A stretch of 64,000 bases of DNA from Candidatus Thiodiazotropha sp. (GCA_040506775.1 JBEVWC010000027.1:159801-223800), one strand, 5' to 3'; positions 33,265-42,922 are shown, counted from the stretch's first letter. The notes: generated from the letters alone by a model not told the origin. Made by a program: numbers and translations.

Positions 33265-33295
33265 ATTGCCGATGTTGCCAGCCAGCACCAGCCAC

Positions 33296-33324
33296 TCCCA
33301 CTCAATCGTCGCCGGCGGCTTGCT
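33296..33324 (-). repeat. Duplicated guaA 3' end (att-like scar, distal island boundary)
   Basis: Encodes [10 protein letters not shown] on the minus strand; 26/29 nt match to 41349-41377, all three mismatches at synonymous third positions; contains GAGTGGGA. Confidence 0.88.
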
Positions 33325-33334
33325 CGGTATCTCC

Positions 33335-33433
33335 GGGGTCGGAGTCGAATCGAGAACGGAGTGGTTGGCTTGATGAATGCACTTGGCTATTTTCGAGATG
33401 ATTCACGGCCTGAGCACTCTCGACTCCGACCCC
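33335..33433. repeat. 99-bp TIR-bounded palindromic element, type B, copy 1
   Basis: Same 14-bp TIRs as type A with a different interior; part of a 118-bp direct repeat (33327-33444 and 33596-33713, one mismatch). Confidence 0.95.
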
Positions 33434-33447
33434 TCCAGCAATCACCC

Positions 33448-38515: not shown

Positions 38516-39349
38516 TTGATAAGTATCCCTTGTTTTGACTCAGTTTAATCATGCCTGGATACCGCAAACGTGTTTTAGCTGTGGGTGATACCGGTTATTG
38601 AGAAATACTGGCACCAGAGTTATTTTGCTTTACCATGGCATAGTGTCAAATTGAGTATACAGCAAATTACAAAGTGTTCTAATGAGACAATAACCACATA
38701 AAGTTTAGTTATTGTGAATTGATAATTAAGTAGACCAGCACATCTTTAACCGATAAATTAATAAGTTCCTTAAATGGCACCAGACCTTATCTGATAGACA
38801 TCCCGGGTTTTTTCCATCATAGCCCATAACCTTATCCACACTACGGTCGAGCATAAGAACGACAAACGCCTTTCTTTGGCAAGACCACTACCGTCTGGTT
38901 ACCGCTGAACACTCGACAGCCATTCAAACCCTCCCGAATCTGTCTGTCAGGTAACCTCTAGCGTTTAAAACTTACCCTTTTAACTTCATGGTCGACCAAT
39001 CACTGTTTTTTCCTCAGTGGTACACCCTGCTGCGTCACAGAGAGCGGCTCTTTTGATTTGAACTATTGATTTCGGGGTCTTGAATCAAACAGCCATGGCC
39101 GCATCCTGGCATCTGGTGACGAACTCTCAGCTAGCGCCCTGGGTTCATTGGCTTCCAGCCTGGAAAACATCCAGGCCTTGGAATCACACACGCAAGAGAC
39201 TCCCAGAGCAGCGATCAACTTCCCATACGGACGGATACTTGAAAACCCACCCCAACAAGCCGGAGTGCCATGACTATGAAAATCACTTAGAATGTGCGTG
39301 CAGGTAGCAGTAAAGAGCAGAACCGGGTTGTGCAATATTCGCCCGAATA

Positions 39350-40636
39350 CTAAATTACCAACGAGGGTATAATATTCTGTAAATCCGGCGACATATTACT
39401 TCTGATCAGATTCGCATAAGCATTAATATCATGATCTCCCAATTCCGGAATAAGGAAGGGTGTTGGCGGCATACCTGGGGTTGCAACTCCATCCCCACCA
39501 ATATAATTCGAAATACCTACGTGACCATAACCCGGTAGAGGGAGGCCCGGAGCCCAGTCACGATGATTGACCCAGCGTTGAGTGAGGCTCCCCAAACCCG
39601 CTTCATCATAGACATTCGTAAAAGTACCCCAGGAAACAGGTGGGCAACCATAGGTATACACATTATGCACCTCATGATCATTCATCAGCTGCAGACGTAA
39701 CGCCATAATGACCGCCAGCGCGCCTCCCAGACTGTGCCCGGTTATGAATAACGGTTGACTGCTGCTCGAACGTTGATCACGAATCGCATTGATAATCGCT
39801 TCATAGTTTACATTGATCGATCCGAGAAAACCGGGATGGGTCATTGCCCCGATCGGAGCCCAGAGAATCTGCGTAGGCGCAGCAAGTTTCGTAAAATTCA
39901 ATGTCCAGTCATGCGCATTCAGTTGGGTTCCCCGAAAGGCAAGCAGGATAAAATCGTCATTCGACAATACCATGGCCTGCAAACCCGTATTTATTTTTAT
40001 GATTCCATCATCAGAGATCAGTTTAAGATTCATTGGCGGCCGTACCAGCGGCTCGAAACGTTCTTTCAAATCAGCCTCAAACTCGTCCCCCGCGTTGTTT
40101 TCAAGCATCCAATCGCCATATATGTAAAGTGAAGCAATTGCCAGCAGGTACGAGTTCTGCCAGCTATGCGCAGATACGTTGAGTTGAAGATTGTCGTAAA
40201 CATAGTCCTGCGTCGATTGCGGGCGACCATCATCCTGTCCGGACTGTTGATCGTTATCGACGACTCCACAACATATCTCCTCGCCTTCTCCTACTGGCTC
40301 TTCATCTGTAACGACGCCTGAGCTACTCGGGTAGTTTTCATTGTATAAAACATAAACGGGTTTCTCGTTACGCAGCAGATCGAGGATCTTTTCATATTGG
40401 TTACTTGGTAAAAATATAAACAGTCGGTTGAGTGTATTTGACTTCAAGTTGGAGGGGGCATTCGTAATGTCATTCATGAAAAAGATGAATGCTTGCCAGT
40501 TCCCCCCATCTGGCATAGCAACATCCTTGCCATAAACAATTATTTCTTCCTGCCATTGCACGGTAGTTGTTGAAATCGTTGAATGGTTGTTTCTTGAAAT
40601 GGTGACCCTGTATTTTTCTGCTTTAATTTTTATCAT
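39350..40636 (-). CDS. Class 3 lipase with an unknown N-terminal domain
   Basis: AFRGT, HPGF, TGHSLGGALA, YTYGCP, VNHRD and DHD triad motifs; ~120-aa N-terminal module ending LLRNEKPVY...EEPVGEGE. Confidence 0.85.
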   Translation of the reverse strand: MIKIKAEKYRVTISRNNHSTISTTTVQWQEEIIVYGKDVAMPDGGNWQAFIFFMNDITNAPSNLKSNTLNRLFIFLPSNQYEKILDLLRNEKPVYVLYNENYPSSSGVVTDEEPVGEGEEICCGVVDNDQQSGQDDGRPQSTQDYVYDNLQLNVSAHSWQNSYLLAIASLYIYGDWMLENNAGDEFEADLKERFEPLVRPPMNLKLISDDGIIKINTGLQAMVLSNDDFILLAFRGTQLNAHDWTLNFTKLAAPTQILWAPIGAMTHPGFLGSINVNYEAIINAIRDQRSSSSQPLFITGHSLGGALAVIMALRLQLMNDHEVHNVYTYGCPPVSWGTFTNVYDEAGLGSLTQRWVNHRDWAPGLPLPGYGHVGISNYIGGDGVATPGMPPTPFLIPELGDHDINAYANLIRSNMSPDLQNIIPSLVI

Positions 40637-41344
40637 ATTCTTTATCCTCTCTTTGCTTAGAGTAATGAGTCCTTCGCAAATCCATACAAACCCACCTTTA
40701 TATCCTTATTACCATTTCGTAACTTTTTTCTCTCAAACGTATTGATAGCTAACCCGGTGACATATCAGTTATATGTTCAAATTTAGAATAGATGTTGGCG
40801 TGTTTTTTTAACACTATGATAATCATGGTATTTAAAAGAGCATCCTTAATTCACGAATATTGAGTTCGCGCATATCCACTTCCTATCTCTCTCCCATAGG
40901 CGAGGTAATCGTCCTTGGTTGATTTACAGACGATCTTGCATACAATGATCCTGTTTCCAGTTTGGTTTAACGGTAAAACCGGGCAATCGCAAACAAAATA
41001 TAATGGTGATGCGTAATCGATATTAGTAGTACGAATACAGATAATTTTGACTACTGCCATAACGGCTCAAGCGGGAAGAGTGCCCCCCCTGATCTGGACC
41101 CAGTCTATGATCTGATCAGAACTGATAATTTTTCATCACCTCAACGATGAAGACTATCGATCAAAAAGGCCAGATGTGATGCGAATGGGAAGACGTTGCG
41201 AATTCCGAGGTATACTCATCGACGAGTTGATAGGAAGGGGTTTGCACTGAACGATCGTGCTGGTCACCACATCTGGCATGATTCGCTTCCTTGCGAAACT
41301 TCTTTTTTGTTCAGTCTGTCATTCAGCCAGTGCCAGACGTGGAG

Positions 41345-42922
41345 TTATTCCCACTCAATGGTGGCCGGTGGCTTGCTGGAGATATCGTAGGCCACCCGGG
41401 AAATCCCCGACACCTCGTTGATGATGCGTCGCGAGACCTCTTCGAGAAATTCGAACGGCAGATGCGCGAACTTGGCGGTCATGAAGTCGATGGTCTTCAC
41501 CGCACGCAGGGTCACCACATATTCGTAGCGGCGTGCATCCCCCACCACACCGACTGAGCGGACCGGCAGGAACACCGCGAAGGCCTGGCTGACCTCGTCA
41601 TAGAGGTTGTGCTTATACAGCTCCTCGATGTAGATGTGATCGGCCTGGCGCAGCAGGTCGGCGTACTCCTTCTTCACCTCGCCGAGGATCCGCACCCCGA
41701 GACCCGGTCCCGGGAAGGGGTGACGGTAGACCATTTCGGAGGGCAGTCCGAGTTCGATGCCGATCTTGCGCACCTCGTCCTTGAACAGCTCCCGCAGGGG
41801 TTCGACCAGTTCCAGTTTCATGTACTCAGGGAGGCCGCCCACGTTGTGGTGGGACTTGATTACATGGGCTTTGCCCGACTTGGCGCCGGCGGACTCGATC
41901 ACGTCGGGGTAGATGGTGCCCTGGGCGAGGAATGAGACATCTTCGAGCTTGCCCGCCTCCTCTTCGAAGATGTCGATGAACAGGTTGCCGATGATCTTGC
42001 GTTTCTGTTCCGGATCGGAGACCCCGCGCAGGGCCTTGAGGAAACGATCCTCGGCGTCCACCCGGATCACCTTGACCCCCATGTGCTCAGCGAAGGTGGC
42101 CATCACCTGATCACCTTCATGCAGGCGCAGCAGGCCGTTGTCGACAAAGACGCAGGTCAGTTGCTCACCGATGGCCCGGTGCAGCAGCGCGCCCACCACC
42201 GAGGAGTCCACCCCGCCGGAGAGCCCCAGCACCACCTGACGTTTGCCCACCCGGGCCTTGATCTGGTTGATGCTGTCTTCGATGATCTGGCCCGGTGTCC
42301 ACAGCACCTCGCAGCCGCAGATCTCGAACAGAAACCGCTCGATGATGCGCTTGCCCTGACGGGTGTGGGTCACCTCCGGATGGAACTGCAGTCCGTAGAA
42401 ACTGCGGGACTCGTCCGCCATGCCCGCCACCGGGGCGTTCTCGGTCTCGCAGATCACCTGGAAGCCCTCGGGCAGGGTTTCGACCCGGTCGCCGTGGCTC
42501 ATCCATACATCCAGCAGGCCGTAACCTTCCGCACTGGTGTGGTCCTCGATGTCCCGCAGCAACCGGGAGTGTCCCCGGGCGCGAACCTTGGCATAGCCGT
42601 ATTCGTGTTTGTCGGAGGAGATCACCGAACCGCCCAGCTGCGCGGCCATGGTCTGCATGCCGTAGCAGATACCCAGTACCGGCACCCCCATTTCGAACAC
42701 CATCCCGGGCGCGGCCGGCGCGGCATCGGCGGTCACGGTCTCGGGACCACCGGAGAGGATCACACCCGCCGGGGTGCCACCGGCGAGCCCCTCGTCGGCG
42801 TTGTCGTAGGGATAGATCTCACAATACACCCCAGCCTCGCGCACCCGCCGGGCGATCAGCTGAGTGTACTGGGAACCGAAGTCGAGGATGAGGATGCGGT
42901 GGGCGTGAATATCTGTGGTCAT
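41345..42922 (-). CDS. guaA: GMP synthase (glutamine-hydrolysing)
   Basis: [38 protein letters not shown] and [10 protein letters not shown]. Confidence 0.99.
41349..41377 (-). other. guaA-proximal att-like repeat containing the GAGTGGGA core
   Basis: Last ten codons of guaA; partner of 33296-33324. Confidence 0.8.

Follow-up and report, generated by a model that had tools for sequence, protein, structure and literature searches.

Why does the end of an essential gene, guaA, occur a second time 8 kb away from the gene, and what is the DNA that lies between the two copies? The question is raised by a stretch of 64,000 nucleotides, referred to here as the window, from the 4.47 Mb genome of a Candidatus Thiodiazotropha species (GCA_040506775.1, JBEVWC010000027.1:159801-223800; G000 in our numbering, in which other genomes of the genus carry further G numbers). 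Candidatus Thiodiazotropha are sulfur-oxidising symbionts whose hosts are lucinid clams. An original prediction, made from the sequence alone, had taken the second copy as the attachment (att) scar of an 8-kb genomic island devoid of an integrase. This observation is confirmed, and the interpretation built upon it is partly supported. What is repeated is a true scar of integration, and between it and the end of the live gene 8 kb of foreign DNA are enclosed; the most probable account of this 8.05-kb segment, in our assessment, is that of a decayed, integrase-less remnant of the guaA-specific GIsul2/CR2 (ISCR2) elements, resembling a cis-mobilizable element (CIME) sensu Guedon et al.

The duplicated guaA end

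The features that define the boundaries of the segment, hereafter the island, are the following.

41345..42931, minus strand: live guaA, encoding GMP synthase (Pfam GATase and GMP_synt_C)
41349-41377, minus strand: the repeated 29 nt inside live guaA, with the core GAGTGGGA at 41349-41356
33296..33324, minus strand: the scar, a copy of the last ten guaA codons including the core GAGTGGGA at 33296-33303 (plus strand coordinates)
32356..33264, plus strand: DUF6279 gene (Pfam PF19795, E 2.6e-32), the conserved far flank of the variable region

The scar, TCCCACTCAATCGTCGCCGGCGGCTTGCT, and its counterpart in guaA, TCCCACTCAATGGTGGCCGGTGGCTTGCT, match in 26/29 nt and stand in direct orientation, spaced by 8053 bp. 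Both encode the same ten residues on the minus strand and the three differences are all synonymous, so that the predicted repeat holds at the level of sequence and of translation. An 11-nt perfect repeat, ATTGAGTGGGA, is common to both att-like sites. With up to three mismatches the 29-mer has two matches in the window, compared to 0.00 expected from 100 shuffles, and in the whole genome it occurs at these two places only; the concern that matches of this quality to the guaA end might be common by chance is thereby removed. A looser core pattern likewise retrieved the ATTGAGTGGGA core with att-type arms at these two sites only, next to one weaker ATCGAATGGGA match on contig C2 that is without att-type context.

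The core itself is known from the literature. GIsul2, a 15.4-kb integrative mobilizable element (IME) found at the guaA 3' end in Shigella, Enterobacter and Acinetobacter, inserts at 5'-GAGTGGGA-3', with att sites of 19 bp around the core (PMC9376610). This supports the proposal of an att-type scar whose core, GAGTGGGA, is the one that P4-type integrases recognize in the 3' end of guaA. As predicted, the DNA between the copies is richer in AT, with a GC content of 0.39-0.49 in a stretch at about 34250-41250 of the window versus ~0.60 in guaA, in the DUF6279 gene and in guaB, which adjoins guaA beyond the island; scar and live guaA end do bound low-GC foreign DNA. An Rfam scan of window positions 33000-41600 gave no match. 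Both flanks are conserved in the genus, guaA with 88-99% amino-acid identity and the DUF6279 gene with orthologues of 74-86% identity in 10 other species. The DNA past the DUF6279 stop codon varies among the eight species for which downstream DNA was fetched, and we count this combination of conserved flanks and a variable interior in favor of the integrative remnant.

The synonymous differences had also been read as the record of a foreign donor guaA, a conclusion that is not supported. The scar is identical in 33/34 nt to the guaA end of a sister species (G050), 26 nt around its core are identical to plasmid pBY3, and guaA fragments on plasmid ISCR2 units are equally close. As the scar is close to both, no foreign donor can be named from the three synonymous changes, which may derive from a donor or from the resident allele. 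Note that only 29-31 nt of guaA are duplicated in the window, and that no further guaA remnant was found inside the island, including the far side of the transposase unit that adjoins the scar.

Both junctions carry degenerate ISCR2-type leaders

Homology does not end with the core. In both copies it extends into known att-family arms, and directly downstream of live guaA stands the beginning of a transposase gene of the IS91 family (ISCR2-like); both features had been missed before.

33265..33295, minus strand: distal att right arm, an ISCR2/CR2-type leader remnant, GTGGCTGGTGCTGGCTGGCAACATCGGCAAT, that abuts the DUF6279 stop codon
41280..41348, minus strand: proximal att right arm, with ATAACTCCACGTCTGGCACTGGCTGA as its first 27 nt, followed by an ISCR2-type leader with an internal deletion
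41198..41279, minus strand: remnant of an IS91-family (ISCR2-like) rcr transposase gene, comprising the start codon and ~27 codons, frameshifted

The reference for these arms is attLR, a third site, through which the GIsul2 integrase moves the CR2-sul2 unit. In ISCR2 it precedes the rcr2 gene by 112-130 bp, in overlap with the sequence proposed as terIS, GGGAGTGACGGGCACTGGC (PMC9376610). The distal scar runs on as GAGTGGGA-GTGGCTGGTGCTGGCTGGCAAC... up to the DUF6279 stop codon, with the former TGA stop codon now reading TGG. Its core and arm match ISCR2 attLR in 29/35 nt and a module on the Aeromonas plasmid pBY3 in 40/47 nt, corresponding to Smith-Waterman scores of 40 and 60, respectively, against a null of 18 +/- 2.3.

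The proximal arm is composite. In an alignment of the window, G008, G001 and G058, ATAACTCCACGTCTGGCACTGGCTGA matches the arm preceding the GIsul2-type integrase (int) genes of G001 and G058 in 25/27 nt. The window and G008 carry this int-type arm for 27 nt and then both switch to the ISCR-type leader, from which we conclude that the live guaA end bears the left arm of an integrase-type island. The leader and the rcr start (ATGCC...) that follow match the 5' regions of ISCR2 and pBY3 with Smith-Waterman scores of 47-51 against the same null. Past the rcr start lies a frameshifted stretch matching rcr2 codons ~25-40, and tblastn gave a weak match of the remnant to Rcr2 residues 19-41; the same remnant is present 160-240 nt past guaA in G005. 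The distance from the proximal core to the ATG is 69 nt rather than 112-130, reflecting a leader deletion of ~50 nt. Taking attLR-type sites as a core with GTGACGGGCACTGGC... upstream of rcr, we thus find recognizable but degenerate leaders at both cores, and an rcr of ~27 codons. No full copy of an intact IS91-family rcr gene was found anywhere in this genome, the stub at 41198-41279 being all that is left.

As both junctions align with ISCR2, both ends of the island consist of a guaA end, the core and an ISCR2-type leader. We had also considered the DNA after the core to be the native guaA spacer, with the scar as a displaced ancestral guaA end; this was dropped, the DNA being homologous to the ISCR2 leader and attLR. 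The same arms bear on the simplest alternative, in which no mobile element took part and the repeat arose by chance or by local duplication in an ordinary variable intergenic region. Such a region would fit an interval whose only intact mobility gene is that of the transposase beside the scar. The chance expectation of 0.00, the homology that reaches published att-family arms at both copies and the use of the same site by integrase-bearing relatives refute it for practical purposes, and we give it hardly any credence.

The integrase

The island had been described as free of an integrase open reading frame (ORF), and this proved correct. Pfam yielded no PF00589 match within it, and tblastn with the GIsul2 integrase, taken from plasmid pAB3 and showing the P4-type architecture Arm-DNA-bind_3, Phage_int_M and Phage_integrase, gave no match in the island, in the whole genome (G000) or in G008. 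The search suggested for a guaA-type integrase elsewhere in the genome thus found none of the GIsul2 type. The same is true for the integrase remnants suspected in 40640-41340, where, as in 38516-39349, stop-to-stop ORFs gave nothing in Pfam at E <= 1 and tblastn with the GIsul2 integrase nothing either. Queries with GIsul2 AlpA, ResG and Rcr2 produced only weak, chance-level tblastn matches in the island, and Pfam and NCBIfam named no RepA/RepC or Trb among the island ORFs, although no dedicated queries were run for these.

Integrases 87% identical to that of GIsul2 are nevertheless present in two congeners, in both cases ~310 nt downstream of a guaA 3' end and accompanied by an AlpA homologue.

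L186 372-1553 (G001:C83): GIsul2-type integrase
G058:C84:86608-87792: GIsul2-type integrase

The junction at these loci reads GAGTGGGA, directly followed by ATGATTCCACGTCTGGCACTGGC, and the other GIsul2 backbone genes are absent. Scanning for PF00589 near guaA on the guaA contig of ~40 species revealed no match; in G001 and G058 the int gene is next to a guaA end on another contig. Two candidates from G006 did not yield a guaA-type integrase: an ORF following guaA has a weak DUF6538 match only, lacks a plasmid homologue and is cut by a multicopy repeat, and an integrase fragment on G006:C233 is of the integron type and belongs to a different locus.

Supply of the integrase in trans, one of the two routes proposed originally, has a direct precedent in the CR2-sul2 unit, which has no integrase of its own and is mobilized by that of GIsul2 in a host deficient in recA (PMC9376610); the integrases beside guaA in the two congeners are in line with it. 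As this genome has no integrase of the GIsul2 type, the island is probably immobile until one arrives or is supplied in trans.

A genus-wide hotspot at guaA

In 10/10 genomes inspected the DNA downstream of guaA is accessory, often over more than 20 kb, and many genomes hold extra guaA 3' fragments, kilobases from the gene, of ~30 to ~135 amino acids. Over the genus, guaA fragments range from 29 nt to ~750 nt. Most Thiodiazotropha have a guaA that ends in GAGTGGGAGTGA, followed by CCGGCACTGGC... and, after ~115 nt, by a transposase gene of the IS91 family, in most cases a broken one. This region shows 69-72% DNA homology to the 5' region of ISVsa3/ISCR2 on resistance plasmids, and sister species have longer IS91-family rcr copies, mostly broken as well. 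Arrays of two to three directly oriented cores follow guaA in at least six other species (G003, G004, G012, G013, G017 and G052), which we count in favor of the integrative remnant. The gene is a genus-wide hotspot with arrays of such sites.

At the far flank, a core with GTGA and leader stands next to the DUF6279 gene also in G003 and G019; in G024 this gene is adjoined by a guaA fragment in decay. The presence of core and leader beside DUF6279 in other species argues for an old, reused hotspot whose present content need not be the outcome of one recent event, and as the left arms differ among species, separate events are possible. An empty-site allele, with guaA directly convergent on the DUF6279 gene, had been suggested as a check in relatives; none was found in 45 genus genomes, and the two genes share a contig only in G008 (9.1 kb apart) and G003 (11.1 kb apart). 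A pattern scan of metagenomes for excision products or population polymorphism gave 0 matches. In G006, the closest relative with 99% amino-acid identity in guaA, homology with the window ends exactly at the guaA stop codon; the DNA that follows (L026 2-517, G006:C121) is an AT-rich element with its first ORF interrupted by a repeat that recurs at over 20 contig ends of the G006 assembly.

Five species contain a family of integrase-less islets at guaA, of 1.1-12.9 kb, with conserved ends and GAGTGGGAGTGA repeats.

L018 971-2083 (G003): integrase-less islet
L022 1939-3485 (G017): integrase-less islet
L028 1613-4093 (G052): integrase-less islet
L027 1600-11435 (G004): integrase-less islet
L029 4917-17848 (G012): integrase-less islet

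A PIN gene is found in the smallest islet and a DUF4172-Fic gene in the second smallest. At their right end the islets have the arm (..CTTATTTACAATA) that also precedes the attLR of ISCR2 in Pseudomonas saliphila, Alteromonas antoniana and Comamonas testosteroni. The exact 47-nt ISCR2 attLR sequence is present in at least 120 species genomes. Among 80 such loci retrieved, 30 are at the end of a full guaA and ~40 follow the GIsul2 backbone arm, while a few follow another arm (...AAAAGATAAAAATGTCTTGTTTACAATA), the same as at the right end of the Thiodiazotropha islets.

Integrase action or ISCR capture

Modules of guaA fragment, core and rcr remnant recur in G019, G021 and G003. In addition, two plasmids carry ISCR2-type elements with a guaA 3' fragment directly upstream of the GAGTGGGA core.

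L055 2-342: guaA fragment of ~340 nt, Acinetobacter pittii pAB17H194-1
L056 1030-1527: guaA fragment of ~500 nt, Aeromonas salmonicida pBY3

The arrangement of these sequences suggests that ISCR2 units may be picked up from the guaA site along with the gene end. A further architecture was observed on G013:C16, where a 228-nt duplicate of the guaA 3' end with 98.7% identity (L021 1451-1678 and 11278-11505) flanks 9.6 kb that start with a near-full IS91-family rcr gene, an arrangement like that of ISCR1 complex integrons.

These structures raise the question whether a site-specific integrase is needed at all. Rolling-circle replication past the upstream end of an ISCR could form a circle of guaA fragment, ISCR and cargo, and a single RecA-dependent crossover of this circle into guaA would yield guaA, ISCR, cargo and a partial guaA duplicate, as known for ISCR1 and the 3' conserved segment (3'-CS). 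The rcr remnant directly after live guaA fits this route, as do the guaA stretches right upstream of the core in the plasmid copies, the duplicate around the near-full rcr in G013, the recurrent modules with fragments from 29 to ~750 nt, and the lack of a PF00589 integrase next to guaA on the guaA contig in ~40 species, those of G001 and G058 being on another contig. It also accounts for the long duplicates of the genus and for the 21 guaA-like nt upstream of the distal core. It does not account well for a duplicate in the window of just 29-31 nt with no other guaA remnant in the island, for a break of homology at the published integrase core, or for an arm after guaA that equals the arm beside the int genes of G001 and G058; moreover, this genome is without an intact rcr gene. 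To our knowledge, ISCR read-through has never been shown experimentally. On balance we hold ISCR capture with RecA to be the less likely route, although a serious competitor.

The integrative remnant that we prefer could have come about as follows. A P4-type tyrosine integrase would recombine at GAGTGGGA, rebuild the guaA end and leave a second core at the far junction. At least one unit of guaA-end fragment, att and ISCR may thus have entered by integrase action at the core, with the enzyme supplied in trans, as for the CR2-sul2 unit, or lost later. Subsequently rcr would have been truncated, the cargo turned over and a RAYT/REPIN unit inserted beside the distal site. Note that a circular unit of guaA fragment, att and ISCR could integrate either by integrase or by RecA, so that the two routes are not exclusive.

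Several points speak against the integrative remnant. No int, AlpA, Rep or Trb gene or remnant was found in the island, and with no GIsul2-type integrase in the genome or in G008 we infer the role of this enzyme from other species and from the arms of the att sites. These arms have degenerated, with the TGA to TGG change and deletions in both leaders. Simple recombination at the core would not make the 21 nt of guaA-like sequence upstream of the scar core, and homologous recombination or read-through of an ISCR would better explain the long guaA duplicates in the genus (228 nt in G013, and decayed ones of up to ~750 nt).

A mosaic interior

The following genes and elements occupy the island between the two junctions.

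34666..35196, plus strand: orf176, a stand-alone papain-like (C39-like) cysteine peptidase of 176 aa
35450..38515, minus strand: orf1021, a near-orphan protein of 1021 aa with a hydrophobic N-terminus, signal-peptide-like by eye
39350..40636, minus strand: Lipase_3 protein of 428 aa (Pfam PF01764, E 1.8e-17) with an uncharacterised N-terminal domain
40590..41040, minus strand: AT-rich stretch upstream of the lipase gene, including a 69-aa ORF at 40851-41060 (minus strand)

Species G008 shares window positions 39337-44314, with guaB, guaA, the 69-aa ORF and the lipase gene, at 91%, and nothing else of the island. The island part of this segment, 39337-41344, is common to both at ~91%, a divergence similar to that of guaA and guaB. 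The rest, including orf1021 and orf176, is absent from the fetched loci of relatives. With one part shared and the other absent, the 8 kb are a mosaic and not one element. The earlier claim of an 8-kb island hence stands in so far as foreign DNA is bounded by two sites, but fails with respect to a single element, as 39337-41344 alone is shared with G008.

The protein encoded by orf176 has no Pfam or NCBIfam match and seven homologues of 46-79% identity, of which those in related metagenomic contigs have unrelated contexts. Its AlphaFold model (pLDDT 69, pTM 0.70) retrieved the ComA peptidase domain, PCAT1 and a papain-like protease toxin in Foldseek (E ~3e-4, TM 0.50-0.55) and thus matches a predicted C39/papain-like cysteine peptidase fold. 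Candidate catalytic Cys and His residues, in NTCW and GH motifs, are kept in the full-length sequences, and a catalytic role is inferred from them.

For orf1021, neither Pfam nor NCBIfam gave a family match, and no relative was found in the genome contigs searched or in a word search of 5.8 billion proteins. In a set of 1.84 billion representative proteins it has a single homologue, with 32% identity, whose gene neighborhood is unrelated. From its hydrophobic N-terminus, which resembles a signal peptide as judged by eye, the protein looks like a secreted one.

Relatives of the lipase show 68-89% identity; the orthologue with 89% occupies the corresponding position in G008, the relative with 68% is encoded elsewhere. 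The lipase block occurs in 2/45 species only. A search for donors of the cargo revealed no shared context, the homologues of the lipase and of orf176 being in unrelated settings. The stretch at 40590-41040 differs from that of G008 by ~6 mismatches in 450 nt (~99% identity), whereas the flanking guaA, guaB and lipase genes are at 87-92%, with third codon positions at ~77%. It has no Rfam match and no further copy in the genome. The pattern may reflect strong constraint on a regulatory or RNA element, or else recent exchange of DNA by the lineages of the window and of G008.

The RAYT/REPIN unit beside the scar

The distal site is directly adjoined by a gene for a REP-associated tyrosine transposase (RAYT) and its palindromic repeats (REPIN).

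33327..34339, minus strand: RAYT/REPIN unit, with the RAYT gene at 33448-34200
33327-33444, 33596-33713 and 34222-34339: 118-nt palindromic repeats, the first starting 2 nt after the scar

The first repeat begins at 33327, exactly as predicted. The RAYT scores 89.8 bits with NCBIfam REP_Tyr_transpos (NF047646; cut-off 80) and has a Pfam Y1_Tnp match too; its gene is flanked on both sides by its repeats, with one copy inside, as is characteristic of a REPIN-RAYT system. The inner copy (33596-33713) keeps the frame and adds ~40 residues between the conserved YLDL and YLALF motifs. The repeat family has five copies in the whole genome, and the nearest homologue of the RAYT in the genus is 53% identical. 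A second, truncated RAYT lies at window positions 4491-4895, with 91% identity over residues 1-54, and is adjoined by two tandem repeats of the same family (80% identical).

The location of this unit had led to the suggestion that RAYT or palindrome activity deleted the integrase. In its full form, this would be a single, fairly recent 8-kb island that arrived with its own integrase and a foreign guaA end in attP and lost the integrase to the RAYT/REPIN later on. The start of the REPIN 2 nt past the scar and the purely synonymous differences between scar and live copy would agree with such a history, and the lack of close orthologues in sister species makes the RAYT, too, a recent arrival. However, the interior is a mosaic, with 39337-41344 shared with G008 and the rest absent in relatives' fetched loci, a core plus leader is found on the DUF6279 side also in G003 and G019, and the scar is identical in 33/34 nt to the guaA end of a sister species. 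The int gene of GIsul2-type islands occupies the guaA-proximal end, so that it would be expected 7 kb away from the RAYT unit, where the ISCR leader now stands. RAYTs are not known to delete the DNA beside them. The RAYT/REPIN is a separate, self-contained insertion of ~1 kb beside the scar that gives no sign of integrase removal; nothing supports a RAYT-mediated loss, no role of the RAYT in the history of the island is demonstrated, and we regard the single-island history as improbable.

Implications for symbiont genomes

The scar marks the entry of foreign DNA beside an essential gene. It implies that the guaA-specific GIsul2/ISCR2 system, known from clinical sulfonamide-resistance islands, also shapes the accessory genome of lucinid-clam symbionts, where the cargo at guaA is secreted or toxin-like rather than composed of resistance genes. 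Units bounded by att sites and moved by an integrase in trans offer a testable route for the exchange of host-interaction genes among symbionts, and they provide natural examples that bear on whether the terIS of ISCR2 really is an integrase att site. A wider and more speculative proposal, which we put forward with considerable reserve, is that the guaA 3' end acts as a population-level cassette platform on which a GIsul2-type integrase of minority strains shuffles in trans several integrase-less, GAGTGGGA-bounded units stacked in direct orientation; the cargo of some of them may be limited to secreted effectors or to one toxin-like gene (PIN or Fic). With an 87% identical integrase and ISCR2-type leaders native at the site, marine sulfur-oxidising symbionts or their relatives could be a natural home of the GIsul2/ISCR2 att system. 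Taken alone, the window gives an ordinary result, and the genus-wide att array and the near-clinical integrase are its more interesting by-products.

Comparison with known systems

Like GIsul2, the island uses the guaA 3' end and the GAGTGGGA core as target, its cores are duplicated at both ends in direct orientation, and the arm after live guaA is the arm found next to the 87% identical int genes in two Thiodiazotropha species. In contrast to GIsul2, it is without int, alpA, repA/C, trb, ars and sul2, its cargo is entirely different, and its arm is not the one that GIsul2 itself has in pAB3.

The island also resembles the CR2-sul2 unit, in which ISCR2 (ISVsa3) carries attLR. Here too GAGTGGGA sites bound DNA that has no integrase, both cores are continued by a leader of the ISCR2 type, with an rcr start downstream of the proximal one, and a guaA-end fragment precedes the core, as on plasmids pAB17H194-1 and pBY3. 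The differences are an rcr of ~27 codons, the deletion of ~50 nt in the leader and a DNA identity of ~70-83%.

Complex class 1 integrons consist of the 3'-CS, ISCR1, cargo and a partial duplicate of the 3'-CS. The island shares this general order of a sequence X, an ISCR, cargo and a partial duplicate of X, with the guaA 3' end in the place of X, but its duplicate is of ~30 nt and ends at a site-specific core, and its ISCR is a stub. The unit beside the scar agrees with REPIN-RAYT systems in a RAYT above the NCBIfam cut-off that is flanked by palindromic repeat doublets, and departs from them in its tiny repeat population (five copies), one of which is in frame inside the RAYT.

CIMEs are decayed integrative conjugative elements (ICEs) or IMEs that keep attL and attR but no longer have the genes for integration and transfer; they are often accreted as tandem copies where a gene ends (PMC5704250). 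The island corresponds to this description in that it keeps both att-like sites, which are putative, with no int or transfer genes found, and in that it occupies a hotspot with tandem site arrays in sister species. CIMEs were defined in streptococcal ICE systems, whereas the sites of the island are partly degenerate and its genome is without an integrase-bearing partner. The island is thus not a new kind of element, but an ordinary decayed member of the known guaA-targeting GIsul2/ISCR2 family.

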